The notes beneath the pieces are model-generated. The model was given only the letters and a program-made list of their open reading frames with translations. It made no database searches and was not told the origin of the DNA. A stretch of 64,000 bases of DNA from an uncultured Candidatus Saccharibacteria bacterium (GTDB lineage: Bacteria; Patescibacteriota; Saccharimonadia; CAILAD01; JADZBC01), in contig CAZCAO010000001.1 of NCBI GenBank assembly GCA_964496815.1, positions 17,803 through 81,802 of the forward strand, read 5' to 3'. The translations under genes were made by a program, and so were the position numbers. Positions 37,572 to 62,880 of the stretch are shown piece by piece. Each line of letters opens with the position of its first letter. Positions within the stretch are counted from its first letter, which is position 1.

Positions 37572-39368
37572 ATGCGCAAACGCTTTTTGGGAATGTATTG
37601 GATTGTATTGCTGGCTGCTCTCGTTGGTGCTGTTTTTTTATCCCGCCCAGCTCGCGCGAGTGTGGACGACTTTAGTTTCAAGAGCTTCGAGGCTGATTAC
37701 TATCTTTCGCGCGACGATCAGAACGTCGCACAGTTGAAAGTGGTAGAAAAGCTCGTGCCGATTTTTCCTAGCTACGACCAGAATCATGGCTTGCGACGTG
37801 CGATTCCCCAGTCGTACAAGGGTCGCAACCTGGACGTTCGTATTGTCTCGATTGTTGACGACAAAGGCATGCCAAGGCCGTATGAAACACGTAGTGAAAA
37901 CAGTAATCTGGTCGTTTCAATCCGCAGTGATGAATACCTGCATGGTGAACAGACCTATGTTATCACTTATACAATCCGTGACGTGATAACGTTTTACAAT
38001 GATTACGATGAATGGTATTGGGACGTCAACGGTGATCAGTGGCAACAGCAGTTCGGTAGTGTGTTGGCACGTATCCATATTCCAGCTAGTCTTGCCACAG
38101 AGCTCCAACAGCAGCAGAGGTGTTTTTCCGGATCCTATGGATCAACCGAGCAAACTTGTTCGATTATTCGCAAACCGTCTACTGAAGGGGTCGTAGTCGA
38201 AGTAGCTGCGACACGTACACTCCAAGCAGGCGAAAACCTTAGTTTTGTATTAGCTTTTAATAAAGCGACATTTGCAGCTTATAAATTACCTATATGGATG
38301 ATATGGGGAATTATCGGGGGCGGATTCCTGCTTTTTATTTTGCCGCCACTAGTGGCTTTCGTTGTAATGTTGCGACGTTGGCTAAAGTTTGGACGTGACC
38401 GAAAAGGGCGTGGCGTGATTATCGCACAGTATGCACCTGAGCCAGGCGTCCATCCGCTTGTGGCCGATATGTTGCAACATGAGCATTTAGAGACAAATGC
38501 AATTACAGCCTGTTTAATAGACCTTTGCATTCAGGGTTATATCAGGCTGTATGAAATAGAGAAGAAAAAACTATTTGGTAAAAAAACAGACTACGAGCTT
38601 GAACTAAGAGGGAAAGACATAATGGCTTTGACTGAATCTCAGCGCCAAGTAGTGAAGGCAGTGTTTGGTGACACTAATTCCGGTAGTCGCATTAAATTAA
38701 GCGATCTTTCGGGGGAGATATATAAGAAATTTCAGCCAATTGATACAGCAGTGGCGAAAGAAGCCACCGAGCAGGCTCTTTTTGTGGCTGATCCTTCTAA
38801 AGTGCGAGAGCAATATCGTAAAAAAGCCCTATGGCTGATTGTTCCATCTGTCATTATTTTTTTCATTCCAGGAGTCGGCTGGTTTAGTCTCGGGTTTCTG
38901 GTGGCGGGCATTGTGGTTGTTGCCTTTGCCCAGGTTATGCCAGCGAGATCCGCCAAAGGGGCAGCCAGCCTCGAGTACTTAAAAGGCATGCGCCTGTATA
39001 TGCAGATGGCGGAGGCCGACCGAATTAAGATGCTGCAAAGCCCCGAAGGTGCAGAAAAAATTAACATTGATCCAGCCAATAAAGCGCAATTAGTTAAGCT
39101 TTATGAAAAGCTTCTGCCCTATGCTATATTATTCGGCATAGAATCACAGTGGGCAAAACAGTTCTCAGAACTATATTCGCAGCCGCCAGATTGGTATGTG
39201 GGCCGTGGTTCTTTTAATGCCGTGGCATTCTCACATGCAGTAAGTGACTTTAGTAGTGTCTCATCGGAGAGTTTTAGCCCACCATCAAGTTCTGGGTCGA
39301 GTGGATTCTCAGGAGGCGGTGGATTCTCAGGAGGCGGCGGCGGTGGTGGTGGCGGCGGAGGCCTTTAG
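37572..39368 (+). CDS. DUF2207-family membrane protein with poly-Gly C-terminal tail
   Basis: Signal peptide, extracellular domain, TM helices, C-terminal 'SGFSGGGGFSGGGGGGGGGGGL' typical of DUF2207. Confidence 0.7.
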   Translation: MRKRFLGMYWIVLLAALVGAVFLSRPARASVDDFSFKSFEADYYLSRDDQNVAQLKVVEKLVPIFPSYDQNHGLRRAIPQSYKGRNLDVRIVSIVDDKGMPRPYETRSENSNLVVSIRSDEYLHGEQTYVITYTIRDVITFYNDYDEWYWDVNGDQWQQQFGSVLARIHIPASLATELQQQQRCFSGSYGSTEQTCSIIRKPSTEGVVVEVAATRTLQAGENLSFVLAFNKATFAAYKLPIWMIWGIIGGGFLLFILPPLVAFVVMLRRWLKFGRDRKGRGVIIAQYAPEPGVHPLVADMLQHEHLETNAITACLIDLCIQGYIRLYEIEKKKLFGKKTDYELELRGKDIMALTESQRQVVKAVFGDTNSGSRIKLSDLSGEIYKKFQPIDTAVAKEATEQALFVADPSKVREQYRKKALWLIVPSVIIFFIPGVGWFSLGFLVAGIVVVAFAQVMPARSAKGAASLEYLKGMRLYMQMAEADRIKMLQSPEGAEKINIDPANKAQLVKLYEKLLPYAILFGIESQWAKQFSELYSQPPDWYVGRGSFNAVAFSHAVSDFSSVSSESFSPPSSSGSSGFSGGGGFSGGGGGGGGGGGL

Positions 39369-39370
39369 CA

Positions 39371-39622
39371 CTAGCTTTGAGTATCGGTCTTTTTGGACTT
39401 TTTCTGCAGAACCTTGGCTTTGGCGGCGTCGTATTTGAGCTTGGCTTTGTGAAGCAGGCCTTTAGCCCAGGCGAATTCAGTAGCAAGAATTGCTAGGCCA
39501 ATAATGACAAACAAAAAGCCCGGCCCTGGTAATACAAAAAACATAAAGCCTACGATGACGACTGTGCCGCCAATCAGGCCGATTGCGAAACGCTTGGTGT
39601 GTCTAAATATAAAATCAACCAT
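39371..39622 (-). CDS. PGPGW-motif small transmembrane protein
   Basis: 'FVLPGPGFLFVIIGLAILATEFAWAK'. Confidence 0.55.
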   Translation of the reverse strand: MVDFIFRHTKRFAIGLIGGTVVIVGFMFFVLPGPGFLFVIIGLAILATEFAWAKGLLHKAKLKYDAAKAKVLQKKSKKTDTQS

Positions 39623-39679
39623 TACGGCTATTATAGCAGCTTACTAGTAGCCCGTGGCTTTACGGGCTATAATAAAGTT

Positions 39680-40414
39680 ATGATTGAAGTAAAGAACGTG
39701 TGCAAAACGTATGGCGAGGGCGATAGCGCCTTCACTGCTTTATATAATGTCCATGTTTCTATTCCAGAGGGCAGTACGGCGGCAATAATTGGCAAAAGTG
39801 GCTCTGGCAAGTCGACGCTAATGCATATCATGAGCGGGCTTGATCACGCCACGAGCGGCGACGTCATCGTGAGCGGCAAAAATTTGCATGATCTTAAGCC
39901 CAAACAAATGGATGCCTTCCGTGCTACTGAAATGAGCTTTATCTTCCAAGCCTTTTTTATTGAAGCCAACCAGACGTGCCTGCAGAACGTAATGCTGCCA
40001 CTTGAAATATCCAAGGCGACGCGACGCACTCGACGTAAACGCGCAGAGGAAGCCTTGGCAGCCGTGGACTTAAGTGAAAAAAGAGACACTTTGGCCGGCA
40101 ATTTATCCGGCGGCCAGAAGCAGCGCCTGGCCATAGCGCGGGCGATTGTGAACAAGCCAAAGTTAATCTTCGCCGATGAACCAACGGGCAACCTAGATAG
40201 CACGACGGGCGAGATGATTATAAAATTGCTGTTTGAGCTCAATCGACAGCTTGGCTGTACGCTCGTGATTGTCACGCACGACGAGGAGTTGGCTGATCGC
40301 TGCCAAATGAAGATCTATATGAAGGATGGCGAGATTAGTGCAGTACATGGGCCTAAGGCGCAGGCTAAGGCCAAGACGACTGTATCAAAGGCTAAACCTA
40401 AGAGGCGTGTCTAA
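39680..40414 (+). CDS. ABC transporter ATP-binding protein (MacB/LolD-type)
   Basis: Walker A 'GKSGSGKSTL', signature 'LSGGQKQR', Walker B 'IFADEPTGNLD'; TATAAT 6 bp before ATG. Confidence 0.85.
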   Translation: MIEVKNVCKTYGEGDSAFTALYNVHVSIPEGSTAAIIGKSGSGKSTLMHIMSGLDHATSGDVIVSGKNLHDLKPKQMDAFRATEMSFIFQAFFIEANQTCLQNVMLPLEISKATRRTRRKRAEEALAAVDLSEKRDTLAGNLSGGQKQRLAIARAIVNKPKLIFADEPTGNLDSTTGEMIIKLLFELNRQLGCTLVIVTHDEELADRCQMKIYMKDGEISAVHGPKAQAKAKTTVSKAKPKRRV

Positions 40415-41748
40415 TGGTTATTCGCGATATTATTCGTCGTTCCGGCCGGAGCCTAAAGAGTGCTAAAGCACGCACGCTCCTTACAGCTCTGGCCATCGCA
40501 GTTGGGGCTTTTGCACTAACGCTAACCTTGGCAGCTAGTAACGGGGCTACGCAATACATAAACAAAATTATTTCTGAAAACTTCGACCCAGCTGAATTGT
40601 TGGTGGGTAAAGATGAAGCAATCTTTGGCCGCGGTGATAATTCCAAGCCCAAGGAATACGATGCCAACTATTCAACTGCCTTAAGCCGGGCTGGCGCAAA
40701 TACTCAAATTAAGCAGCTCGACGAGAATGACATTGCGACCATTAAGGCCCTGGATGGCGTCTCGAGAGTGCGCGAAAGCATCACTGCGAATTTACAGTAT
40801 GTAACTCGTCCTGGTCAGAAAAGGTACATCGGCAACGCCCAGGCTTTTAGCCCCTACAGCAAGCCAGAAGTTTTGGCGGGCAAGGTGCCAGACCCACTGA
40901 GTAATAAGCAGATTCTACTTCCCGAGGGCTACCTGTCTGTCCTAGGCTTTAGCGGTGCGGAGGATGCCATTGGCAAGCAAGTTACCCTGGCCGTAGCTAA
41001 ACCAGCTACCTTAGGCAGCGGTCGACCAACGCCGACTGAGGGCAATACGGTGTTAACAGACTTTACCATAGCTGCCGTACTGAAGCGGCCAAGTACGGCG
41101 CAGCCTGGAACGGAGTTGTACATGTATGTCGGGCTTGATGATGCACGCGAGCTGCAAGACATTACTACCTTCGGAACCCCAAATTATCGTAAATATACGT
41201 TTGTATTTACCCAGGTGGCGAATGGGGCTAACGATCCGCAGGCGCTCAAGGTTGTCCAGGATAAACTGAAGTCCAAGGGCTATGTGGCGCAGTCGGTCAA
41301 AGATACTCAGCAAACGCTGACTGGCTTCATTACTGTATTGCAGGGCATTGTGGCGGGTTTTGGTATGATCGCGATTATTGCCTCTGTTTTTGGTGTGATT
41401 AATACGATGTACATTAGCGTGCTGCAACGCACGCGAGAGATAGGGCTGATGAAGGCATTGGGTATGCGCAAACGTGATATTGGTCGTCTGTTTCGCTTCG
41501 AGGCAGCTTGGATTGGCTTTTTAGGAGGAATGATTGGTTCGTTGCTGGCTGTCGCCCTCGGTACGGCGCTTAATCCGTTTATCACTAAAAGCCTGAATCT
41601 GGGATCGGGTAATTATCTGCTCATATTCAAGCCAGTTGAGGTAGTAGAACTGGTCGTAGCGCTTATGTTGGTCTCCATACTGGCTGGCTGGTTGCCGTCG
41701 CGCAAAGCCGCTAAGCTTGATCCAATTGAAGCATTAAGAACGGAATAG
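40414..41748 (+). CDS. ABC transporter permease, FtsX/MacB-like
   Basis: N-terminal TM, large periplasmic domain, C-terminal 3-TM FtsX module. Confidence 0.85.
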   Translation: MVIRDIIRRSGRSLKSAKARTLLTALAIAVGAFALTLTLAASNGATQYINKIISENFDPAELLVGKDEAIFGRGDNSKPKEYDANYSTALSRAGANTQIKQLDENDIATIKALDGVSRVRESITANLQYVTRPGQKRYIGNAQAFSPYSKPEVLAGKVPDPLSNKQILLPEGYLSVLGFSGAEDAIGKQVTLAVAKPATLGSGRPTPTEGNTVLTDFTIAAVLKRPSTAQPGTELYMYVGLDDARELQDITTFGTPNYRKYTFVFTQVANGANDPQALKVVQDKLKSKGYVAQSVKDTQQTLTGFITVLQGIVAGFGMIAIIASVFGVINTMYISVLQRTREIGLMKALGMRKRDIGRLFRFEAAWIGFLGGMIGSLLAVALGTALNPFITKSLNLGSGNYLLIFKPVEVVELVVALMLVSILAGWLPSRKAAKLDPIEALRTE

Positions 41749-41756
41749 GAGGGGTC

Positions 41757-42008
41757 ATGCTGATCGACGTTCGAACACCAGAGGAGTATGCCGAGGCTCA
41801 TTTGGAAGGGGCAGTCAATGTAGAGCTGAGCCCTGATATGGTAGAGCTGATTCCGGCAGAAGCAAGGCAAGAGACTATAAAGCTCTATTGCCGTAGTGGC
41901 GGCAGGGCAGGAACAGCCGCACGATTATTAGCACAGGCAGGCTACCAAGTGAAGAATATTGGCGGGATTGATGATTTAGTGGCTCAGGGATATAGTAAGG
42001 CTAAGTAA
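41757..42008 (+). CDS. Rhodanese-domain sulfurtransferase
   Basis: 'IDVRTPEEYAEAHLEGAVNV', active-site 'YCRSGGRAG'. Confidence 0.8.
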   Translation: MLIDVRTPEEYAEAHLEGAVNVELSPDMVELIPAEARQETIKLYCRSGGRAGTAARLLAQAGYQVKNIGGIDDLVAQGYSKAK

Positions 42009-42023
42009 TTAGGAGAATACCTA

Positions 42024-42202
42024 TGGATGACAAGAAAAAGAAAGACCTCGAAGAGCAAAAGCGCGGTGGCCTGTTCGTACCCGCTGGTGTCTTGCTGGGC
42101 ACCGGCCTGGGCTTTGCTTATGGTAATATCCCGGCGGGAGCACTGATTGGCTTGGGTGTAGGCTTTACTATCTTTGCCCTCATTAGCGTTTTCAAAAAAT
42201 AG
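42024..42202 (+). CDS. Small membrane protein (59 aa)
   Basis: Not in ORF track (<60 aa); AGGAG 7 nt upstream; Gly-zipper TM 'GVLLGTGLGFAYGNIPAGALIGLGVGF'; ends at terminator hairpin. Confidence 0.45.
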
Positions 42203-42216
42203 TGTCTTGGTATAAA

Positions 42217-42263
42217 CGAAGAAGACCCCCGAACGAATCGGGGGTCTTCTTCGTTCAGGGGTC
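42217..42263. terminator. Bidirectional intrinsic terminator, repeat-family copy 1
   Basis: CGAAGAAGACCCCCGA-acgaa-TCGGGGGTCTTCTTCG then TTCAGGGGTC. Confidence 0.7.
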
Positions 42264-42289
42264 AAACATAGTTGCTGTCGGAGTGTATA

Positions 42290-42727
42290 CTACAGTTCCA
42301 GTTCTAGGCCGAACGCGGCCAGCTGGGCCTGTATGAACTCCACGCTACCTGCATCAAGAGAGGTAGTGTTGAGCAGGAAGGTGGCGCGATACTTCATCAG
42401 CTCGCCAACGGTGTTGATACCGGATTGGTTGCGCAAGCAAGCGGCCGTTCGAGTCCTCAGCAGCTGCGGAAACTCGCGTCCCTCATGCTTCAAATCCAGC
42501 AGGTCTTCGATGCTCATCTCGAGAATCTCGCGCATTTTACCGACGAGCTCGGTTGTGACGCGTATTTCCTCGACCTTGATGGTGGCCATCACGTCGAGAC
42601 CGAAGTAGGTGTCTTCTAGTCTCCTGATGGTCTCGAGGGCTTCCAGTATGGCACTGGGGCTCCCTGTGAGGACGAGTTGCACGTGTGCTTTGTGCGGTAC
42701 GACTTCGGTTCCTTCGATGTCGGGCAT
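42290..42727 (-). CDS. Stand-alone RNA polymerase alpha-subunit C-terminal-domain-like protein
   Basis: C-terminal 'LRTRTAACLRNQSGINTVGELMKYRATFLLNTTSLDAGSVEFIQAQLAAFGL' aligns with alphaCTD '[51 protein letters not shown]'; own promoter TTGACT..TATATT. Confidence 0.55.
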   Translation of the reverse strand: MPDIEGTEVVPHKAHVQLVLTGSPSAILEALETIRRLEDTYFGLDVMATIKVEEIRVTTELVGKMREILEMSIEDLLDLKHEGREFPQLLRTRTAACLRNQSGINTVGELMKYRATFLLNTTSLDAGSVEFIQAQLAAFGLELEL

Positions 42728-42830
42728 TGCTAGGGCCTTTTGTTCTCTGCGGGGCTACCGCAGCACATCCACGGTGGATGATTAGCAGATAATATAACAA
42801 AATTAGTAAAAAGTCAATATTCTTATTAAG

Positions 42831-42873
42831 AAAGGACCCCCGAACGAATCGGGGGTCCTTTCGTTCGGGGGTC
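42831..42873 (-). terminator. Intrinsic terminator, repeat-family copy 2
   Basis: AAAGGACCCCCGA-acgaa-TCGGGGGTCCTTT then CGTTCGGGGGTC. Confidence 0.7.
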
Positions 42874-42894
42874 GGATTGTTGGTGGCCGCTTGC

Positions 42895-43272
42895 TCAGCG
42901 GCCGAGGATGACCGTACAGGACGGATTGTCCTGGATCAGCCAGTCGCCGTCGTACTGCACCAGCTTGCCATCGCAGACCTTGCTGGTCTTGGAGCCGTCT
43001 GTCACGGTGTAGCGCACGGCCCTCTTCCAGACCGAGAGCTCGACCACGTGGATCTTGTCGTAGTGCGACTCGACCTCCGTCGTGACACGGGCATCTTCCT
43101 TGGCCCGGCTCTCATCCACGAGGTACATGCCATTGGCGAAGACCACGAAGATGACGGCCAGTACCCCGAAGGCGATGGCTGGCTTCCAGTGTTTCTTGGA
43201 GATCAGCAGGACACCGGTGGCGACTGCGAGCACTCCCGCCATCATCAGTGCGACGATTACTTCTGCGCTCAT
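42895..43272 (-). CDS. Hypothetical two-TM membrane protein with C-terminal soluble domain
   Basis: 125 aa; AAGGAGG RBS; own promoter TTGTAT-18-TAATAT; GC-rich codon usage. Confidence 0.5.
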   Translation of the reverse strand: MSAEVIVALMMAGVLAVATGVLLISKKHWKPAIAFGVLAVIFVVFANGMYLVDESRAKEDARVTTEVESHYDKIHVVELSVWKRAVRYTVTDGSKTSKVCDGKLVQYDGDWLIQDNPSCTVILGR

Positions 43273-43367
43273 GGCGCCTCCTTGTTCGGGGCCTCAGATT
43301 TAAGGCTGAAGGGTATATTAGCATATTATGCAATAAAAGTAAATACATACAAGGTTTTTGTGTAATA

Positions 43368-43413
43368 ACGAAAAGACCCCCGAACGAATCGGGGGACTTT
43401 TCGTTCAGGGGTC
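43368..43413 (-). terminator. Intrinsic terminator, repeat-family copy 3
   Basis: GAAAAGACCCCCGA-acgaa-TCGGGGGACTTTTC then GTTCAGGGGTC. Confidence 0.7.
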
Positions 43414-43426
43414 GGGCTGTGCCGGC

Positions 43427-43846
43427 TCAGCCGGAGGTGATGACCAGCCTGATGTCGGCGAAGGCATTGGTCAGCGCCTGCTCGAACTCGAGGTTCTCGC
43501 CGATTCCGTGGCCGAAGTGCTCTCGAACGTCGACGGCTCGGATCACCTCGGTCTCCTTGAGCACGCTCAGGGCGTGGTCGATGATCTGTGCCTTGAGCTT
43601 CTCCTGCGGATCGCTCCGCTTGGCGTCGATCAGGACCACACGGTTGTGCAGCTGGCTGAGCTTCTCGTGCTTCTCGTGGAGTCGGCCCTCGACGTTGATC
43701 ACTGCATGTTCTGCAAGGATCTGGAAGCGCCCAGAGGTCACGATGGTCTGGATCTGGCCATCGTCACCCGTGAAGCGCAGGCTTCCGTCGGGCATGGTGG
43801 CCAAGAGGCCTACCTGCAGGGCAGGCGTGGTTGCAGTTGCAGCCAT
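43427..43846 (-). CDS. Hypothetical soluble protein (139 aa)
   Basis: AAGGAG RBS 5 nt before ATG; own promoter TTGACT-16-TATAAT; GC-rich. Confidence 0.5.
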   Translation of the reverse strand: MAATATTPALQVGLLATMPDGSLRFTGDDGQIQTIVTSGRFQILAEHAVINVEGRLHEKHEKLSQLHNRVVLIDAKRSDPQEKLKAQIIDHALSVLKETEVIRAVDVREHFGHGIGENLEFEQALTNAFADIRLVITSG

Positions 43847-43970
43847 GTCAGTTCTCCTTGGTCGGTGGATGACTAAATAATTATATACTAAATCGAAAAA
43901 TAGTCAATGTATTGAGTGTTTTATATCAAGCCTACTTTCCGCTATACTGTTGTAAAGAAAAGGAGCCAGT

Positions 43971-45284
43971 ATGGCACGGGTAACACCACGTATCCTCAGC
44001 GGTTTTGTTGAGCTTCTGCCCGAGGATCAGATCCAATTTAATAAGATGTTCGATACAATTCGTAGTGTGTACGAAAGCTATGGCTATGCACCGATTGAGA
44101 CACCGGCAATCGAGTTGGGAGAGGTTTTGCTCGCTAAGGCAGGCGGTGAGACCGAGAAGCAAATCTACAAAATCGCTCGGGACAAAGACGACAAAGAGAT
44201 GGCATTACACTTTGACCTAACTGTGCCCCTGGCGCGCTATGTAGCTCAGCACGAAGGTGAGTTGGTTTTGCCGTTTAGGCGCTATCAAATGCAAAAAGTC
44301 TGGCGTGGCGAACGCAGTCAGGCAGGACGATACAAGGAGTTCTACCAATGCGACATCGACGTCGTTGGCAGTAGCAATGTGCTCTATGACGCTGAAATGC
44401 CTGCTGTTATTTCGAGCGTATTCCGCCAGCTTAATATCGGTAGCTTCACGATTCGAATCAATAATCGAAAGATCTTACAGGGTTACTTGGAAAGCATTGG
44501 TGCACATCACATTTCGGCAGAAGTACTGCGTGTAATTGATAAGCTAGAAAAGATTGGCGAAGCTGCGGTGGTCTCTGAGCTCGTTAAGCTCGGCGTTGAA
44601 GAGCAAGCAACCCAAAAGCTACTGACATTCTTACGTACGGCAGGAACTGTGGACGAGGTGCTTGAGCAGCTTAGGCAAGTAGACACACAAAACACCCGCT
44701 ATCTAGCTGGGTTAGAGGAACTGAGTGGTGTGATTGACGGTATGCGTCGCCTAGGAGTGCCAGCCGAAGACTACGTGATCGATTTAAAGATTGCTAGGGG
44801 GCTAGATTATTACACCGGTACTGTTTACGAAACAAACCTGGATGACTTCCCAGGGGTAGGCAGTGTGTGTTCTGGTGGCCGTTATGACGATTTAGCGAGC
44901 TATTATACCAAGAGCAAACTGCCTGGAGTTGGAGTATCTATTGGCTTAACTCGGCTGTTTATGCAGCTTAAAGAAATTGGCCTGGTGAGTGCTGGAGCTA
45001 AGACCACCAGTCAGGCGGTGATCTTGCCTCTTAACCCCGCCGCAACTGCTCGCGCACTCGAAGTAGCTAGTGAGCTTCGCAATGCTGGTATCACAGTCGA
45101 AGCATACATGGAGCAGTCGCAGCCAAGCAAGATGATGCGCTACGTGGACCGCCTTGGCGCGCCCTATGCTATCGTGATCGGCGAGGATGAGTTGGCGAGT
45201 GGGGAAGTAGTGCTGAAGAATATGACAACGGGCGAACAGCCGGTGGTGAGCATACAGGAAGTGATCAAGCGCCTAAAGGGCTGA
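43971..45284 (+). CDS. hisS: Histidyl-tRNA synthetase
   Basis: Class II motifs, 'FDLTVPLARY', C-terminal anticodon-binding domain; AAGGAG RBS. Confidence 0.9.
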   Translation: MARVTPRILSGFVELLPEDQIQFNKMFDTIRSVYESYGYAPIETPAIELGEVLLAKAGGETEKQIYKIARDKDDKEMALHFDLTVPLARYVAQHEGELVLPFRRYQMQKVWRGERSQAGRYKEFYQCDIDVVGSSNVLYDAEMPAVISSVFRQLNIGSFTIRINNRKILQGYLESIGAHHISAEVLRVIDKLEKIGEAAVVSELVKLGVEEQATQKLLTFLRTAGTVDEVLEQLRQVDTQNTRYLAGLEELSGVIDGMRRLGVPAEDYVIDLKIARGLDYYTGTVYETNLDDFPGVGSVCSGGRYDDLASYYTKSKLPGVGVSIGLTRLFMQLKEIGLVSAGAKTTSQAVILPLNPAATARALEVASELRNAGITVEAYMEQSQPSKMMRYVDRLGAPYAIVIGEDELASGEVVLKNMTTGEQPVVSIQEVIKRLKG

Positions 45285-54186: not shown

Positions 54187-57100
54187 ATGCGACGCGCAGC
54201 AGAGCGTGGTCGTACTGTATTTGTTCGTACTAAAATCCCGCATCACGCTAAACGTGCTCGCGTAGTGGTAGCTGCGCATGCCAGGCGCGCCCATAGTGCG
54301 ACGTTGGGCAGGGCCCATTCGCACTTGGTCACTAGAGTGCCGATGTATAGCAAGTGGCATGGCTGGAAGCACCATAAACATGTTCATCACGGTGTTTTGG
54401 CGGCCGTCTTGGTGGCTGGAACTCTAAATATTTTATTATTCCGCTCGGCTTTTGCCCTTTCGGATATTACTCAGTTGTGGAACTTTTCTAGCCAGTCTGA
54501 CTACACGCTGTCAGATACCAATGCACTGGAATATAGCGGCAATAGTGTGCGCCTAAAAGCCCAGAATTATACGAGTGACGCTAATACCATGGCCCTGTAC
54601 CATCTGGATGAATCAAATGGCACTTCGGCAAGTGACGATTCAAGTAATAACAATACAGGCTTGCTAGCTAATGCGCCGGCGTGGGGAGCTGGGAATCTCA
54701 ACAATGCCCTTACCCTAAACGGCACGAACCAAAGTGTTAGTGCAGCCGATTCAAGCTCGCTTTCGCTTTCGCAGAGCAATAGTTTAGAGGCTTGGTCAAA
54801 GTTAGGTTCTAGCTTTTCGGCCAATTCTCAGCAGAACGACCAAGTGATTATGGATAAGGGTAGTTATAAACTCTATTATGATCACGAGACTGGTAAGCCA
54901 ACCTATGAGCTAGAGAACTCGTCGGCTACAAGCTGGACTCCGCAGGCGGGTAACGGCCAGAATAACAGTTGGAATACCTCTGGCCCGACCGCTACAAAAG
55001 CATCAGTCGTTCACGATAACAATCTATACATTGGCACAGCAGGCGGCGCAGGTTACGCTCAAGTTTGGGGCTATACAGGTTCAGCTTGGACTAAAATTGG
55101 CGGTGATGGCATAAACTCAGGCTGGGCAGCAAACACGTATGAGGAGGTCGACTCCCTTACTTCAGATGGAACATATCTATATGCTGGCCTCGGTACAACT
55201 ACAGGTGATGGTGAGGTGTGGCGTTGGAATGGTTCTAGCTGGAGCAAAATTGGAGGTGATGGCATAAACTCAGGCTGGGCAGCAGCTACCTATGAGTCTG
55301 TGGCTAGCATGACATATATGGGGGGTAATCTCTACGCCGGGCTAGGTGCAAGTGGAGGTGACGGCGAGGTATGGAAATGGAACGGAACGAGCTGGACTAA
55401 GATTGGCGGCGACTCAATTAACTCTGGTTTTAATATCGGAACTGTCGTAAGCCTTGCGAATGATGGAACGTACGTTTATGCCGGCACAGGTACTGCTGCA
55501 GGAGATGCCGATGTCTGGAGATGGGACGGCGCAATTTGGACCCAGCTCGGCGGCGATGGACTAAACTCAAGTTGGGCGGCGGGCACCTATCAGCAGGTGT
55601 TAAGTATGTTTGTACAGGGCGGACAGTTGTATGTTGGTACGGGTGCCGGCACGAGCTTGGGTGAAGTTTGGAAGTGGAGTGGTAGTGCTTGGGCCAGGCT
55701 GGCTAGTAGCGGAACGGGATTCCCGGCAGCCACGTATGAGGGTGTATGGAGTATCACGGGCGACGGAACTAATCTTTATGTTGGCACTGGCAATAGTCAG
55801 AATGACGGTGATGTATATAAATACAACGGTTCTACATGGTCGCAAATCGGTGGTGACGCCCTAAGCTCTGGTTGGACGCAGGGATACATCGTCTATTCAC
55901 TTACTTGGTTCAACGGAAAACTTTATGCCGATGCGACTCAAGCTTCCAGTGGCGATGTCTTTTACTCTTGGAATGGTTCTGCTTGGACGCGTGAAGGTGG
56001 TATGTACTATGGTGGTAGTTGGGGAATGATTAATCTCAATAGTGTGCGGTCTATGACAACTGCCAACGGCAAGTTATATGCTGGCCTTGCAGGGAATTCC
56101 AACGCCAGCGTGTTTGAATACACAGGATCAGCTTGGCGGATTATTGGTGCGCCTGGGCTTAATTCCGCCTGGGGCGTGAGCCAAATTAGCGAGGTTAATG
56201 CCATGACATCAATGGGGGGACAGCTATATATCGGCACAAGTGGCGGGCAGAATGGTGATGCGGAATTGTGGCGTTGGAATGGCACGAGTTGGGCTCAGGT
56301 AGGCGGCGATGGCATAAATTCAAGCTGGAATGGTTCTTATACACGTATTTATGCAATGGCATCAGATGGTACCAATCTTTATGCCGGGGTCGGTTCCACC
56401 GGAGGCAATGGTGAAGTGTGGCGCTATTCGGGCTCAACCTGGACGCGGATAGGCGGCGCAGGGGCCAACGGTAGCTGGAATGGAACTTACCGAAATATAT
56501 ACTCTTTAGTCGTTTCGGAGGGAAATCTTTATGTAGGTAGCTATGGATCAACCAATAATAGTGCCGATGTGTGGAAGTGGAATGGGTCAAGCTGGACTCA
56601 AATTGGTGGCGATGGATTGAATTCCGGTTGGAATTTCAGCTCTATAGGTAATGGTGAGGTTGGTTCGCTCGCAGTTTATGGTAATAAGTTGTATGCAGGG
56701 ATAGGCTCTCTAAGCGCTGGAGATGCCTCGGTTTGGTCTTGGGATGGAGCTGCCTGGACCAAGGTGGGGGGCGATGACGTTAATGGCAGTTGGACGACCA
56801 GCACCTATGAACGTGTCGCTAGTATGGTTGTATATAACGGCCAGCTTTATGCCGGCCTGGGTTCAACAGGCAGTAATGGCGAACTCTGGCGTTATAATGG
56901 TTCAACCTGGACGCAAGTCGGCGGCGACAGTCTCAATGGCGGCTGGAGTTCGTCGATTGAAAGCGTGCGCTCTCTAGCGGTCTATAAAGGTAAGCTTTTT
57001 GCGGGTCTTGGTGACACTCAGAATTCGGATGCCCTGATTTATTCGTATGGTAATAATGGCTTCCTGCAGGGTTCTACAAGCAGTTTCGACACTGCTTGGC

Positions 57101-60100
57101 GGCATATCGCGGCGACATACGACGGTAGCACGATGAAGCTGTATATTAATGGCGCACTTGATGCTTCGGGCGCAACTTCTTTATCGATGCCCGACACAAA
57201 TACCAGCCTCTATATTGGGCGATCGTATGGCACGCAGGGTTCGAGTGGGAATCAAGCATACTATAACGGCAGTTTAGATGAGATTCGTATTAGCAATAGC
57301 GTTCGAACGAGTTTTACATCGAAACCCTATACTGCCAGTCGGGTGGGTGTTCGACTCACTAATCCAGTTTATACGAGCGGCATTGCCAGTTGGGATGGTT
57401 TGGCGAGTAGTTATAGCGCCGATGGTGGCAGTGTGCTGTTTAGACTTTCTATAGACGGCGGAACAACCTGGCGATATTGGGATGGCTTTGCTTGGCAAAC
57501 GTCAGCGGGGCTAGAACAGGCAAACGCAATTGCCGATATTAACGCCAATATACCCTCGATTGGAGTTACATCGGGAGGGATTGTGTGGCAAGCTGTGTTA
57601 CAGGGCGATGGCAATCAGCGTCCATCGATAAGCTCGACTACCCTAACTGCCACAGCGGACACAACTGCCCCTGGTCAAAACGCGGCTAATACCATTATGA
57701 AGACGTCTCCTACCGGAGCGACGGTTGCCGAAGGGGCCTGGACCAATGCGGCCACACCGTACTTTAGTTGGGATGCCGCAATCGACACCCAGTCGACAAT
57801 TAAGGCATATTGCCTCTACCTGGGCCAGTCAAACAGTGATGACCCTCTGACGTCGAAAGGTCTGCTCGGTACGAGTCCGATTGACCTGACAAATACTTGC
57901 CCATTTGCCGTTTCAGGGCAGGACCTTGATCTTGCCACGAATGGGTTGTTGGCGAGTGTGCTGACAAGTTCTTCGAACCCATATTATCTAAACATTAAGG
58001 CAATTGATAACGCTGGCAATGTTGCGGCTAATAGTGAGCAATTTTCATTCCGCTATGATGGAATCGTCCCATCAAACCCCCTCTTCGTTTCCACTCCGTC
58101 GCAATTTGTGGCCAACAAGCAGGTGACGATTACCTGGCCGACCGTCGGGGGAGATGCGGCGCTTGATCAGCATTCCGGGGTTGTAGGCTTGCAATATCGC
58201 ATTGGTACCAATGGTACTTGGTATGGCGACAGTCATACCGGTGCGCAAGACAGTACTGATCTGCTGGCAAACGACGGTAGTTATCAGACGATTGATCCAA
58301 CTGACTTTGATACCTTGCAGGATGGTAATAATACCGTTTACTTTAGGACCTGGGATGCGGCGGGCAATGTGTCGAATGCATATGTTACTGGCGTGATTAA
58401 GATAAATACATCATCACCTTCTGTTCCCCAGAATTTATCAGCTACACCGACGACAAATACGACGAATAGCTTTGCCTTTGATTGGCTCGCGCCGGCTAGT
58501 TTTGGCGGTTCAGCGGCTAACTTAACGTACTGTTATACAATAAATACTCTGCCTTCAGCTAACACGTGTAGCTTCACGGCTGCCGGCGTAACGAATTTGA
58601 TTGCCAACGCTTATGCCACGCAGCCAGGAGCCAACACGATGTATGTGGTAGCTAAGGATGAGGCGGGTAATATAAATTATGCCACTTATGCCTCGGTTAC
58701 CTTTACGGCCAACACGTCAGCGCCTGGACTGCCGCTCAATGCAGATATCGCCGACATCAGCGTCAAGGCTACATCAAATTGGAAGTTGGCAGTATCTTGG
58801 GAAGAGCCAACTGACGTCGGAGCAGGTGTTGCTCAATATCGAGTCTATCGATCTGTCGACGATATTACCTATACGCAGATAGCGAGTACCTCGGGTGCTA
58901 GCTATGTTGACACCGGCCTTTCTCCAATACGGTATTACTATAAAGTTAAAGCCTGCGACTCTGCTAATAACTGCGGCGCCACGACGCTGCAGGTTAATCA
59001 AAAGCCAACAGGTAAATTTACTACCCCTGCTAGCTTGGTTTCTGATCCGGTCGTGTCTGACGTGAGTACGCGACGAGCTACCGTGAGCTGGTCGACTGAT
59101 CGTGATAGTGATAGCCGTATTCAATTTGGCAAAAGTTCTGGTAACTACTTTGCTACAGAAGTCGCAAGCTCTGCACAGACCACGAGTCACAACATAACGA
59201 TTAACAATTTAACCTCGGGAACAACCTATTATGCTCGTGCTCGCTGGACCGACGAGGACGGCAACATCGGTACTTCTGAGGAGTTTATGTTTAGTACCAG
59301 TCCAGCACCGACAGTCAAAGAAGTAACCAATAAACAGATTGGACTTGGTAGTGCTACAGTCCAATTTACATCCAAGGAGGCCACCAAGGTCAAGGTGCTT
59401 TATGGTAAATCAGAGAGTTTTGGCGGGGCGCAGGAGATTAATACAGCCACGCAAGAATCTACTTACACGACCGTGCTATCGAACTTAGAGGATGGTACGA
59501 AGTATTACTATAAGCTCAACACCTATGATAGCGAAGATAATGAGTATGAAGGCAATGTCTACTCGCTTACAACTCCTGCCCGACCTCGTATTAGCAACCT
59601 GCGCTTCGAGCCAGTTGAAGGCGAGCCTACAAGTACGCAGCGGGTCTCGTGGACTACCAACGTACCGACAAGCTCCGAGGTAAGCTACGGCGCGCAGGGT
59701 CAGTCATCTCAAGAACAGTTAGACAGTCAATTAACCCTTGATCACAGCATTGTGATTCGCGGCCTGACTGATGATAGCATATATTCCCTGGTTGCACGTT
59801 CTCGAGATAGCCAGGGCAACGCCGCAGTAAGTGAGACGCAGACATTCCGTACCGCACTAGACACCCGTCCGCCGAAGATAAGTAGCGTTGTGGTCAAAAG
59901 TGCGGTGCGTGGTAGCGGGGCCGATGCACGGGGACAAGTTATTGTAAGCTGGCAGACTGATGAGCCGGCAACCAGCCAAGTGGCGTTTAGTCAGGGCTCT
60001 TTGGGCGGGGAGTTGGCTTCAAGGACCGCAGAAGACGCAAAGTTGGTTACCGACCACCTAGTGATCGTATCTGACCTGACCCCGTCGAAGGTCTACCAAG

Positions 60101-60237
60101 TTCAGGCTTTATCGAAGGATCGTAGTAGTAATCCGGCGAAATCACTCGATCAAACAACAATTGTTGGTAAGGCTCCAGCCAGTATTTTTGACATCGTATT
60201 TAAAACGCTACAGAGCATATTTAGCTTTGTAAAATAG
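54187..60237 (+). CDS. Giant cell-surface protein: N-terminal anchor, LamG-like domains, ~18 tandem ~55-aa beta-propeller-type repeats, C-terminal FN3-like domains
   Basis: 2016 aa; repeats 'GDGEVWRWNGSSWSKIGGDGINSGWAA..Y..V.S......LYAG'; LamG-like 'LYHLDESNGTSASDDSSNNNTGLL...'; FN3-like 'ATVSWSTDRDSDSRIQFG'; true start possibly internal (MYSKWHGW...). Confidence 0.85.
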   Translation: MRRAAERGRTVFVRTKIPHHAKRARVVVAAHARRAHSATLGRAHSHLVTRVPMYSKWHGWKHHKHVHHGVLAAVLVAGTLNILLFRSAFALSDITQLWNFSSQSDYTLSDTNALEYSGNSVRLKAQNYTSDANTMALYHLDESNGTSASDDSSNNNTGLLANAPAWGAGNLNNALTLNGTNQSVSAADSSSLSLSQSNSLEAWSKLGSSFSANSQQNDQVIMDKGSYKLYYDHETGKPTYELENSSATSWTPQAGNGQNNSWNTSGPTATKASVVHDNNLYIGTAGGAGYAQVWGYTGSAWTKIGGDGINSGWAANTYEEVDSLTSDGTYLYAGLGTTTGDGEVWRWNGSSWSKIGGDGINSGWAAATYESVASMTYMGGNLYAGLGASGGDGEVWKWNGTSWTKIGGDSINSGFNIGTVVSLANDGTYVYAGTGTAAGDADVWRWDGAIWTQLGGDGLNSSWAAGTYQQVLSMFVQGGQLYVGTGAGTSLGEVWKWSGSAWARLASSGTGFPAATYEGVWSITGDGTNLYVGTGNSQNDGDVYKYNGSTWSQIGGDALSSGWTQGYIVYSLTWFNGKLYADATQASSGDVFYSWNGSAWTREGGMYYGGSWGMINLNSVRSMTTANGKLYAGLAGNSNASVFEYTGSAWRIIGAPGLNSAWGVSQISEVNAMTSMGGQLYIGTSGGQNGDAELWRWNGTSWAQVGGDGINSSWNGSYTRIYAMASDGTNLYAGVGSTGGNGEVWRYSGSTWTRIGGAGANGSWNGTYRNIYSLVVSEGNLYVGSYGSTNNSADVWKWNGSSWTQIGGDGLNSGWNFSSIGNGEVGSLAVYGNKLYAGIGSLSAGDASVWSWDGAAWTKVGGDDVNGSWTTSTYERVASMVVYNGQLYAGLGSTGSNGELWRYNGSTWTQVGGDSLNGGWSSSIESVRSLAVYKGKLFAGLGDTQNSDALIYSYGNNGFLQGSTSSFDTAWRHIAATYDGSTMKLYINGALDASGATSLSMPDTNTSLYIGRSYGTQGSSGNQAYYNGSLDEIRISNSVRTSFTSKPYTASRVGVRLTNPVYTSGIASWDGLASSYSADGGSVLFRLSIDGGTTWRYWDGFAWQTSAGLEQANAIADINANIPSIGVTSGGIVWQAVLQGDGNQRPSISSTTLTATADTTAPGQNAANTIMKTSPTGATVAEGAWTNAATPYFSWDAAIDTQSTIKAYCLYLGQSNSDDPLTSKGLLGTSPIDLTNTCPFAVSGQDLDLATNGLLASVLTSSSNPYYLNIKAIDNAGNVAANSEQFSFRYDGIVPSNPLFVSTPSQFVANKQVTITWPTVGGDAALDQHSGVVGLQYRIGTNGTWYGDSHTGAQDSTDLLANDGSYQTIDPTDFDTLQDGNNTVYFRTWDAAGNVSNAYVTGVIKINTSSPSVPQNLSATPTTNTTNSFAFDWLAPASFGGSAANLTYCYTINTLPSANTCSFTAAGVTNLIANAYATQPGANTMYVVAKDEAGNINYATYASVTFTANTSAPGLPLNADIADISVKATSNWKLAVSWEEPTDVGAGVAQYRVYRSVDDITYTQIASTSGASYVDTGLSPIRYYYKVKACDSANNCGATTLQVNQKPTGKFTTPASLVSDPVVSDVSTRRATVSWSTDRDSDSRIQFGKSSGNYFATEVASSAQTTSHNITINNLTSGTTYYARARWTDEDGNIGTSEEFMFSTSPAPTVKEVTNKQIGLGSATVQFTSKEATKVKVLYGKSESFGGAQEINTATQESTYTTVLSNLEDGTKYYYKLNTYDSEDNEYEGNVYSLTTPARPRISNLRFEPVEGEPTSTQRVSWTTNVPTSSEVSYGAQGQSSQEQLDSQLTLDHSIVIRGLTDDSIYSLVARSRDSQGNAAVSETQTFRTALDTRPPKISSVVVKSAVRGSGADARGQVIVSWQTDEPATSQVAFSQGSLGGELASRTAEDAKLVTDHLVIVSDLTPSKVYQVQALSKDRSSNPAKSLDQTTIVGKAPASIFDIVFKTLQSIFSFVK
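55050..57040 (+). repeat. Tandem intragenic repeats (DNA and protein level)
   Basis: e.g. 'ggtgatggcataaactcaggctgggcagca' occurs near-identically at ~55095 and ~55257. Confidence 0.7.
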
Positions 60238-62677: not shown

Positions 62678-62706
62678 TTGACTAATTAGTATATTTATAG
62701 TAAAAT
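62678..62706 (+). promoter_or_regulatory. sigma70-like promoter upstream of ppdK
   Basis: TTGACT-17 bp-TAAAAT. Confidence 0.5.
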
Positions 62707-62880
62707 ATACCCCTATTTATTACGACTTTTAAATCTATCTTGTCGGGTAAATCGTGCGACGAAGAATGTCGTTTTGACAGATGAATAGTTCTTTAGTGTG
62801 TTGATATGGGCAGGCGAATCAGCGATTAGTCTACAGGGTGAATGACTGCTCGCTGATTCGACTATCCCTTAGGAGGAACC

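Follow-up and report, generated by a model that had tools for sequence, protein, structure and literature searches.

The locus between a rhodanese-domain gene and hisS in this Candidatus Saccharibacteria genome probably represents a chromosomal recombination hot spot, at which tandem moron-like units are exchanged by homologous recombination with a terminator-hairpin repeat as their boundary. A unit consists of a predicted sigma70-type promoter in AT-rich sequence, followed by a short leader that includes the ribosome-binding site, then by a small open reading frame rich in GC at third codon positions (GC3) and by one copy of the repeat. The evidence was obtained from the window, that is, the whole stretch of 64,000 nucleotides analysed, and from related genomes (designated by L numbers). 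The related contigs belong to Candidatus Saccharibacteria / Saccharimonadia, in agreement with the epibiont lineage suspected in the original prediction.

Organisation and composition of the cassette array

The three minus-strand genes claimed for this interval were confirmed as open reading frames at the positions given for them (Table 1), and the housekeeping genes nearby do lie close together, with an overlap at 40414/40414 followed by gaps of 8 nt and 14 nt. hisS adjoins the cassette array in eight independent relatives. The mini-protein gene p59 varies in its presence among relatives, with 93–95% amino acid identity where found. Assembly artefact or contamination was ruled out, the architecture recurring in independent ENA, NCBI, JGI and Logan assemblies.

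Table 1. Features of the cassette array and its flanks (positions in the window).
Feature	Position	Strand	Description
Rhodanese-domain gene	41757..42008	+	Right flank, conserved; Pfam PF00581, 54.9 bits
p59	42023..42202	+	59-aa glycine-zipper membrane mini-protein; belongs to right flank
Repeat copy 3	42215..42263	−	Closes cassette g1, faces convergent p59 3′ end; RNA MFE −37.2 kcal/mol, z = −7.3
g1	42290..42727	−	145-aa free-standing protein, aB subtype; ~85-aa N-terminal domain and RNAP α-CTD-like helix-hairpin-helix domain
g1 promoter (predicted)	42789..42817	−	TTGACT-17-TATTAT; 10/12 consensus matches
Repeat copy 2	42830..42873	−	Closes cassette g2; RNA MFE −30.5 kcal/mol, z = −6.3
g2	42895..43272	−	125-aa protein; two N-terminal transmembrane segments and ~70-aa C-terminal domain
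g2 promoter (predicted)	43323..43352	−	TTGTAT-18-TAATAT; read by eye from the sequence
Repeat copy 1	43367..43413	−	Closes cassette g3; RNA MFE −29.9 kcal/mol, z = −4.8
g3	43427..43846	−	139-aa soluble protein; N-terminal β-hairpin region and helical C-terminal half
g3 promoter (predicted)	43880..43907	−	TTGACT-16-TATAAT; 11/12 consensus matches
hisS	43971..45284	+	Left flank, conserved; Pfam tRNA-synt_His / HGTP_anticodon; divergent from first cassette

The interval had been described as a GC-rich island of about 60% GC. The enrichment is real and the figure is too high: positions 42203–43930 have 55.4% GC overall, compared to 48.9% in the rest of the window, and form its most GC-rich 1.7-kb stretch (99.6th percentile). 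The coding sequences of the three genes have 56.4, 60.6 and 61.9% GC, and the promoter/UTR spacers only 35–39% (34.7% upstream of g3; 38% upstream of g2). GC3 amounts to 0.705 in g1, 0.841 in g2 and 0.821 in g3, as compared to 0.499 ± 0.046 in 44 background ORFs (z = 4.5–7.5). With the cassettes pooled, GC1 is 0.62, GC2 0.387 and GC3 0.80, the GC2 of resident genes being 0.408 in a noisy reference ORF set.

Upstream of each gene there is a −35/−10 pair, consistent with the separate sigma70-like promoter that had been proposed for every gene. The predicted promoters of g3 and g1 are the top two sigma70-like sites within 41000–45000, the g3 site being the best. The g2 promoter is identical in the relative L004, travelling together with its gene, and the g1 promoter and 5′UTR are ~90% conserved relative to L004, where the g1 coding sequence is only 51% identical as protein. 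As regards the ribosome-binding sites, also claimed for each gene, those of g3 (AAGGAG) and g2 (AAGGAGG) are clear and that of g1 is weak.

A common hairpin repeat closes every cassette

The original prediction treated the three hairpins downstream of the genes as separate terminators. The hairpins are real, and a T-rich tail follows the GC-rich hairpin behind each gene, as expected of predicted rho-independent terminators; overlooked was the defining structural feature of the locus, namely that the three represent a single conserved repeat of ~50 nt. Its 21-nt core, GACCCCCGAACGAATCGGGGG, is found at 42224, 42835 and 43375, three matches in the 64-kb window compared to 0.00 expected by chance, with none outside the island. 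The stem is perfect and GC-rich, comprising 17–18 bp (18 bp in copy 3) and a 5-nt loop. All 15 cassettes examined, in nine genomes, end with the repeat. In the alignment of the hairpins, 97% of cells are paired, both sides change in 4 of the 11 pairs, and the covariation of 0.277 (0.152 in shuffles) was reached by none of 500 shuffles. Judged from sequence, terminator activity of the repeat is most likely, and it would be bidirectional at the end of the array.

The repeat also contains elements that a plain terminator does not require: a 5′ flank, GACCCCYG, that is nearly invariant yet unpaired, and a three-fold arrangement of a 9-mer with two direct copies and one inverted. The 5′ flank could also pair differently, over 14 bp, in 95% of cells; this alternative was rejected, its covariation being no greater than that of shuffles. 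A whole-genome scan placed the repeat in one stretch only of every matched Saccharibacterial genome. Searching the island against Rfam gave sub-threshold chance matches only, indicating that the repeat belongs to no known RNA family, and scanning IMG/VR with the 19-mer core gave a single match, a chance terminator. Metagenome scans with the plain 19-mer hit at least 120 loci, the extended element occurring in none among the matches listed, and the gapped extended repeat gave 0 matches.

Exchange of cassettes between lineages

The hisS-proximal site in related Saccharibacteria MAGs holds one to four units from at least four protein families. The window has g3, g2 and aB; L004 has aA, g3, g2 and aB; L010 has g3 and p136; L006, L043 and L177 have g3 alone; L014 and L026 have a g2-like unit alone (49–54% identical to g2); and L050 has aA alone. 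By the original prediction's own standard, the same three genes in the rhodanese–hisS interval of distant relatives, with no compositional deviation, would have spoken against acquisition; what was found are different sets of genes, with compositional deviation in all. A second cassette site, yraN–nusA, exists in a more distant lineage, occupied by a g2-like unit in L047 and by g2-like then g3-like units in L174.

Comparison of the window with L004 reveals g3 and g2 to be 97–98% identical at the nucleotide level, the flanking genes only 74–84%. The corresponding dS values are 0.03 for g3 and 0.07 for g2, as opposed to 1.75 for hisS, 1.48 for bipA and 2.15 for the rhodanese gene. Low dS in the two cassette genes together with saturated flanks (dS 1.5–2.2) implies recent transfer between lineages, and the notion of a horizontally mobile, cassette-like insert of autonomous units is thus borne out. 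The aA genes of L004 and L050 display the same pattern (pS of 0.135, compared to 0.80 for hisS). Moreover, the affinities of g3 and hisS are reversed: window g3 is 95% identical in amino acids to that of L004 and 70.5% to that of L010, whereas for hisS the values are 79% and 90.6%, respectively.

These observations bear directly on the possibility that an ancestral array of four or five genes was inherited vertically and reduced by deletion between direct repeats, with no horizontal exchange. Every hisS array is indeed a subsequence of aA-g3-(g2 or p136)-aB, the order being constant across nine genomes; direct repeats of ~50 nt would favour precise deletion of units; and g1/aB, with a dS of 1.05 between the window and L004, has diverged about as much as the flanks. 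None of this accommodates the low dS of g3 and g2, the low pS of aA, the reversed affinities of g3 or the related units at a second locus, and as it stands the scenario is extremely improbable. Vertical inheritance is contradicted as a complete explanation; loss between repeats probably still contributes. The constant order at hisS also fits differential loss and does not require repeated insertion.

Where the exchanged segments end is informative as to how they are exchanged. The block of high identity between the window and L004 has one end within the g3 leader and the other within g2/g1, in neither case at a repeat, and identity between the two genomes is a mosaic that includes a 100%-identical patch inside hisS. 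L010 and L026 have flanks that are 95% identical and cassettes that are unrelated; here, the left break falls just short of the −35 box, and on the right homology restarts with the first base of the repeat. An exact restart at the repeat could suggest an integron-like or Xer/pdif-like system, in which a recombinase encoded elsewhere would recognise the repeat, either through its hairpin or through three 9-mer boxes, and discrete units would be excised and inserted. A structured repeat 3′ of every cassette in a single orientation, the tandem arrays, their presence at two chromosomal sites, and the invariant unpaired flank and 9-mer triplet beyond what termination alone explains are all in keeping with it, as is the order of units that differs by site (g2-like then g3-like at yraN–nusA in L174, g3 then g2 at hisS). 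At hisS, however, the order is unchanged in nine genomes, and the block that was transferred recently does not end at the repeats. Pfam recombinase domains, Phage_integrase included, are absent from the called genes and ORFs checked in the 64-kb window, and the called genes listed for L004, L006, L010 and L014, to about 8 kb from the array, include no recombinase; some ORFs of the window have no family assignment and could therefore encode a recombinase beyond family recognition.

Like integron arrays, the cassettes are tandem single-gene units of variable content at a fixed site, each with a conserved palindromic element in one orientation. Typical attC sites are imperfect palindromes with R″/L″–L′/R′ boxes, R′ being GTTRRRY, and extrahelical bases, and dif/pdif sites have an AT-rich 11-6-11 layout. 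The cassette repeat resembles neither: its hairpin is perfect, without R/L boxes or extrahelical bases, and the bases following the terminal GTT of the stem (e.g., GTTATTA, GTTTATA) do not fit GTTRRRY. Integron cassettes are mostly promoterless and expressed from a common Pc, in contrast to the promoter-like site carried by each cassette here, and intI, attI and Pc were not found at the array. We consequently consider a site-specific system of this kind improbable and favour homologous recombination as the mode of exchange.

Cargo proteins and the origin of their composition

The assignment of g1 as an RNAP α-CTD-like protein is upheld by its match to Pfam PF03118 (25.9 bits; cut-off 23.8), with higher scores among its relatives (aB, 39.8 bits; aA, 50.9 and 57.4 bits). 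The g1 family is not RpoA proper. The α-NTD is absent, and NCBIfam rpoA models match over their last ~55 positions only, with 26–49 bits far under the cut-offs of 228–523. Considering the 265 determinant (R265, N268, C269, G296, K298 and S299; reference chain verified as the E. coli α-CTD), window g1 keeps R265, C269 and S299 and has lost N268, G296 and K298, three DNA-contact residues (E. coli numbering), while the aA subtype keeps R265, N268, G296, K298 and S299. The single-sequence structure model of g1 was unusable (pLDDT 45). The helix-hairpin-helix fold signature is common to the RNAP α-CTD and the cassette proteins. Phages likewise have small free-standing α-CTD proteins, an example being gp9 of Roseobacter phage CRP-701 (annotated as RNAP α subunit), to which the ~85-aa N-terminal domain of the cassette proteins is unrelated.

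g2 was predicted as a small two-TM protein, and its hydropathy profile has the two N-terminal hydrophobic segments, with a Lys-rich loop (KKHWK) between them; two Cys are located in the C-terminal domain. g3 had been called an unknown and is without family match in profile searches. An exhaustive profile search of 1.84 billion representatives recovered only three full-length clusters at 50% identity for g3, with none beyond the clade. Its AF2 model (pLDDT 70) gave no informative match in a fold search, and giant WD40 / Calx-beta proteins, which the g3 profile matched in multiple stretches, were dismissed as cases of generic β-hairpin similarity. The dN/dS of 0.4–0.75 identifies g3 as a real gene.

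Relatives of g2 and g3 outside this clade of Saccharibacteria were not detected in 5.8 billion proteins, 50,697 phage records and IMG/VR, and by sequence comparison both are near-orphans. The search of phage, plasmid and defence databases, advised in the original prediction, yielded no homolog of g1, g2 or g3: tblastn against the 50,697 phage records gave nothing at E ≤ 1, PADLOC no match at E ≤ 1, PHROGs no significant match, and IMG/VR scans with the family alignments no matches. The cargo genes are nevertheless real and fast-evolving, their dN/dS of 0.3–0.9 compared with 0.01–0.09 in the flanking genes.

In the PDB, the aA α-CTD has as its seven best matches chains that we take to be Mycobacterium and Streptomyces RpoA, at 41–49 bits as compared to 30 for E. 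coli; identity to the top mycobacterial α-CTD is 57–61%, and the NFGQKS motif is present in both. Among the cargo, only the aA-subtype α-CTD thus appears to lean actinobacterial, in a comparison made without the resident Saccharibacterial RpoA, so that a native origin may apply.

Exchange among Saccharibacteria alone leaves one property of the cargo unaccounted for, namely a lasting GC3 excess of 0.66–0.97 across relatives whose genomes have ~49% GC. One explanation would be that all three genes were recently imported straight from an actinobacterial host of high GC, their promoters and terminators having been added or co-opted later; besides the affinity of aA, it could draw on GC3 values up to 0.97 in aA of relatives and 0.82–0.84 in g3 and g2, and on GC3 being lower the longer the inferred residence (aA > g3/g2 > aB), in line with amelioration of an import. 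Cultivated Saccharibacteria grow on Actinobacteria (PMC10633639). The direct actinobacterial donor suggested in the original prediction was not supported, however: exchange has proximately involved other Saccharibacteria with the same promoter–gene–repeat architecture, and it is in another Saccharibacterium, along with the same AT-rich promoter and repeat, that the copies closest to g3 and g2 occur. Considering also that the searches found no actinobacterial homolog of g1, g2 and g3 and that pooled cassette GC2 is not above the (noisy) resident reference, we regard direct import as fairly unlikely.

Alternatively, the excess may be made locally, through GC-biased gene conversion at the hot spot or selection on synonymous sites, requiring no GC-rich donor. 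The excess is limited to third codon positions, and it persists in g3 copies only 71% alike at the protein level (GC3 0.82–0.89). Recombination is demonstrable at the locus, yet recombining flanks such as the 5′ end of hisS are not GC-enriched, and GC3 of 0.92–0.97 beside spacers of 35–39% GC would be extreme for gene conversion. Recent polarised changes in the cassettes are balanced in a sequence of 60% GC (5 GC>AT, 6 AT>GC), but these counts are far too small, and the GC2 reference set is noisy. We give the local explanation a low probability.

Discussion

The proposed mechanism, exchange of tandem units at a chromosomal hot spot, is understood as follows. The GC-rich hairpin core of the repeat would insulate each unit as a strong intrinsic terminator. 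The presence of the repeat in every unit means that ~50 nt of portable homology are provided at each unit's 3′ boundary. Units would be gained, lost and replaced between Saccharibacteria lineages through homologous recombination, anchored by hisS on one side and by the repeat, the rhodanese gene or macB on the other; a dedicated recombinase would not be involved. Natural transformation appears the most plausible route. Cultivated Saccharibacteria are naturally competent, with homologous recombination (PMC10633639). The small cargo pool, fast-evolving throughout, would comprise free-standing α-CTD proteins, two orphans that are soluble and a two-TM protein anchored at the surface, and may act at the interface of the epibiont with its host or with phages; the α-CTD proteins might bind DNA or α-CTD partners.

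There exist clear analogies to known systems. Phage morons of the HK97/HK022 type (Juhala/Hendrix, reviewed in PMC3594210) are single-gene units with own promoter and terminator and deviant GC, spread horizontally; a predicted promoter and terminator of their own, deviant composition and conserved neighbours also characterise the cassettes. Morons reside in phages or prophages, whereas the cassettes occupy a core chromosomal region, in which the neighbours are housekeeping genes and phage genes were not found in the 64-kb window; furthermore, the cassettes are tandem, have one common terminator-like repeat and occur at the same site across species. Minimal mobile elements of Neisseria, as summarised in PMC3787668 (Saunders & Snyder 2002; Snyder 2007), have differing content between conserved flanks, are exchanged by homologous recombination of the flanking sequence and carry no mobility genes of their own. 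Similar to these and to other hot spots of transformable bacteria, the cassette array varies in gene content and composition between conserved flanking genes, with mobility genes not found; it differs by its repeat-delimited, self-promoted single-gene units, the structured element at every boundary and the ultra-small epibiont host.

A more far-reaching idea, which we consider very unlikely, is that the repeat serves as recombination site of an unrecognised Patescibacteria cassette system. Having no recombinase of its own and acting on the hairpin, perhaps in incoming single-stranded DNA of transformation, such a system would capture genes that bring their own expression signals, line them up in arrays and shuffle them; some of the cargo, a mimic of the host RNAP α-CTD among it, would come from actinobacterial hosts and be turned against them.

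Lastly, the study has importance for understanding how Saccharibacteria, with their tiny streamlined genomes, gain and trade accessory functions, of which little is known; the locus offers a compact example. It is a defined hot spot in a core region, where units are swapped between lineages that are saturated at synonymous sites of their housekeeping genes, and the repeat provides a sequence tag for finding further units. For the new genetic tools in Patescibacteria, the natural promoter–gene–terminator modules could become parts, and the insertion site, being tolerated, a landing pad. The fast evolution of the cargo, together with its α-CTD and surface-anchored proteins, makes these proteins candidate factors in the interaction of the epibiont with its host or with phages.

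The hairpin element and its cassettes

The island carries three minus-strand open reading frames (g1, g2 and g3), as predicted, and each is followed by a hairpin, in keeping with the individual terminators proposed; what had been missed is that all three hairpins are copies of one ~50-nt element. The 64 kb contain exactly three matches to its 21-nt core, GACCCCCGAACGAATCGGGGG, all of them in the island (0.00 expected). The gene-strand sequence of the element, GACCCCYGAACGAA-RRGN-CCCCCGA-TTCGT-TCGGGGG-NCYTTTCGTT, forms a hairpin of 17–18 bp with a 5-nt loop and an 8-nt flank before it that duplicates the stem's GACCCCCG; folding energies are −30 to −37 kcal/mol (z = −4.8 to −7.3). In a set of 15 copies, pairing in the proximal hairpin stands at 97%, and 4 of 11 pairs are altered on both sides. 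Covariation amounts to 0.277 compared with 0.152 in shuffles, none of 500 reaching the observed value. Loop-anchored comparison shows the stem lengthening to 17–18 bp with compensatory changes. Alternative pairing of the 5′ flank can form but lacks covariation support. The element matches no Rfam family, and a scan of 185,579 species-representative genomes confines its extended form to Saccharibacteria/Patescibacteria MAGs. Since it occupies one stretch per genome in the whole-genome scan, it is not a genome-wide repeat.

Coordinates of features (window positions unless stated)
Feature	Position	Strand	Description
DUF2207-type membrane protein	37572-39368	+	long poly-Gly tail at end
ABC ATPase ORF	39599-40414		G>T at 39962 in L001
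Rhodanese gene	41757-42008	+
p59	42023-42202	+	59-aa glycine-zipper membrane mini-protein
Island	42203-43930
g1	42290-42727	−	aB subtype
TCATCCACCG, g1 leader	42772-42801
g2	42895-43272	−
g3	43427-43846	−
TCATCCACCG, g3 leader	43863-43892
g2/g3 SNPs	43165, 43765, 43780		strain level
hisS	43971-45284	+
hisS patch	44300-44376		100% identical to L004
Laminin_G_3/fn3 giant protein	54187-60237	+	2016 aa; then ABC/MacB pair
PPDK_N/PEP-utilizers gene	62679-64000	+	cut by window end
aA of L004	7415-7846 (L004)		GC3 0.97

Relatives were located by exact-protein and homolog look-ups, the lineage being metagenomic Saccharibacteria. The synteny comparison of the rhodanese–hisS junction reveals variable cassette content, drawn from g2, g3, two subtypes of a free-standing RNAP alpha-CTD protein (aA, aB) and another cargo protein, p136. 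All cassettes begin with their own AT-rich TTGAC-type promoter and end with the element. The yraN–nusA interval of a more distant lineage contains g2-like and g3-like units, each with a promoter and a lineage-specific element variant, in the order opposite to that at hisS. The p59 gene is 93–95% conserved in L004, L043 and L177, and absent from the corresponding interval of L006, L010, L014, L026 and L050.

Cassettes next to hisS
Genome	Content
Window	g3, g2, aB (g1)
L004	aA, g3, g2, aB
L010	g3, p136
L006, L043, L177	g3-type only
L014, L026	g2-type only
L050	aA only

A putative sigma70-like promoter precedes each island gene, as had been proposed. TTGACT-16-TATAAT and TTGACT-17-TATTAT, the two best such sites in 41–45 kb, stand before g3 and g1, respectively, and TTGTAT-18-TAATAT before the middle gene, g2. 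The g1 and g3 leaders share the motif TCATCCACCG just 3′ of the −10 box, also present in the L004 copies; it is probably the transcript start.

Cassette transfer and replacement

The window is a core chromosomal region encoding, among others, RecJ, YbeY, Adk, Map, FtsA/Z, NrdR, pyruvate kinase, IleRS, FtsW, ParA/B, RF1, BipA and RelA. Pfam annotation of called genes (~23 to ~64 kb) and ORF scans (0–23 kb) revealed no integrase, transposase or phage gene, and the gene listings for L004, L006, L010 and L014 likewise contain no recombinase up to ~8 kb from the array. The DUF2207-type and Laminin_G_3/fn3 proteins are likely surface proteins.

The proposal of a horizontally mobile, modular block is borne out by the variable content of these units and by comparison with L004. 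Flanking genes show 74–84% nucleotide identity and saturated synonymous sites (dS: hisS 1.75, bipA 1.48, p59 2.19, rhodanese 2.15), amid which g3 is 97.6% identical (dS 0.03) and g2 96.8% (dS 0.07); the divergence of g1 is flank-like (dS 1.05). High identity begins in the g3 leader (~43870) and extends into g2 (~42950), then falls off across the promoter and leader of g1; neither end of the transferred stretch thus coincides with a repeat. Similarly, aA differs between L004 and L050 by a pS of 0.135, compared with 0.80 for hisS of the same genomes. L010 and L026 have 95% identical flanks on both sides and unrelated cassettes, their homology stopping just short of the −35 box of the cassette and restarting at the element's first base. 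Judged from these alignments, the pattern is one of recombination-driven replacement at a hot spot, to which deletion between direct repeats probably contributes. Vertical descent with differential loss as the sole explanation cannot account for it. Cultivated Saccharibacteria are naturally transformable via the com system and integrate DNA by homologous recombination (PMC10633639). Published surveys attribute the majority of transfers detected into Patescibacteria to donors within that group (PMC12455944).

A fully identical patch inside hisS, otherwise ~80% identical to that of L004, suggests that recombination tracts extend into this flank. Compared over ~21 kb with the near-identical contigs L001 and L002, the window shows three of four SNPs in g2/g3 coding sequence, one of which turns a D of g3's invariant GDDG motif into H. 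In L001, a G>T change splits the ABC ATPase ORF into 94-aa and 140-aa calls, through a nonsense mutation at the strain level or else through misassembly.

Source of the GC excess

The ~60% GC originally ascribed to the island describes its coding parts (56.4, 60.6 and 61.9%) but not the whole interval (55.4%); promoter-bearing spacers have only 35–39%. The GC profile nevertheless identifies the island as the most GC-rich 1.7-kb stretch of the window (48.9% outside it). The deviation resides in third codon positions, with GC3 of 0.705, 0.841 and 0.821 versus 0.499 ± 0.046 in 44 other window ORFs. In all relatives, cassette genes are GC3-rich (0.63–0.97) versus their own genomes (0.50–0.585, the highest being L047). 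The rough GC3 ranking (aA > g3/g2 > p136 > aB) and the actinobacterial leaning of the alpha-CTD fit a history in which the genes came from a GC-rich source, ameliorated and spread among Saccharibacteria. However, pooled cassette GC2, 0.387 against a noisy reference set, is not above that of resident genes, and recent polarised changes are balanced (n = 11). The suggested actinobacterial donor is unproven: only the aA alpha-CTD leans actinobacterial, and g2 and g3 have no GC-rich donor homolog among those found.

The PPDK_N/PEP-utilizers gene (729 aa in L182) is a second GC-deviant gene, with 58.6% GC in the last kilobase; its TTGACT-17-TAAAAT promoter and ~170-nt leader both lie within AT-rich sequence.

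Cargo proteins

The assignment of g1 as a free-standing RNAP alpha-CTD-like protein holds (PF03118, 25.9 bits; cut-off 23.8), its relatives scoring 39.8–57.4 bits. The family joins an ~85-aa N-terminal domain to the alpha-CTD and splits into the two subtypes; because only the last ~55 rpoA-model positions match, its members are not RpoA. Relative to the verified E. coli alpha-CTD, R265 is invariant; aA retains N268, G296, K298 and S299, the first three of which are lost from the g1 of the window. In the PDB, the aA alpha-CTD scores highest with seven chains (41–49 bits; E. coli ~30) that are, we presume, Mycobacterium RpoA (47–49) and Streptomyces (41), in a comparison whose references did not include Saccharibacterial RpoA. 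Identity is 57–61% to the alpha-CTD fragment of 5vi8_T, which we take to be the top-scoring mycobacterial chain. The phage small protein CRP-701 gp9 also has an alpha-CTD, its likeness to the family being limited to that domain. The aA of L004 contains a 9-aa internal tandem duplication (IEFIGDKSR/IEFIGQRPA) absent from its L050 homolog.

The predicted two-TM character of g2 agrees with two N-terminal hydrophobic segments with a Lys-rich loop between them; a C-terminal domain of ~70 aa with two cysteines follows, and the positive-inside rule suggests that it is exposed. The g3 protein is a near-orphan: five homologs turned up in 5.8 billion proteins, and full-length clusters numbered three in 1.84 billion representatives. 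Its moderate structural model (pLDDT 70) gave no informative fold match. Phage, defence and plasmid collections, searched as the original prediction had suggested, returned no matches to g1, g2 or g3. Cassette genes evolve at dN/dS of 0.3–0.9, flanks at 0.01–0.09; pN/pS in the aA N-terminal domain is 1.4, from small numbers (23 nonsynonymous, 5 synonymous changes).

Relation to known systems

Phage morons are defined by their own promoter, own terminator and deviant GC (PMC3594210), and functionally each cassette would fit that definition, although it is not located in a phage. The locus behaves like the minimal mobile elements of Neisseria and other hot spots of transformable bacteria (PMC3787668), but differs in its added repeat-delimited modular layout. 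Resemblance to integron arrays is superficial: a search for each of their marks (intI, attC features, promoterless cassettes) found none at the locus. Three features prompt the reading that the element is the recombination site of a cassette system without its own recombinase: a 5′ flank that is invariant for no evident reason, the 9-mer triplet, and a right-hand boundary that falls exactly at the element; we regard this reading as very improbable. A recombinase-free Saccharibacteria hot spot with an array of cassettes bounded by a conserved hairpin is a genuinely interesting architecture, of which the papers searched contain no description.
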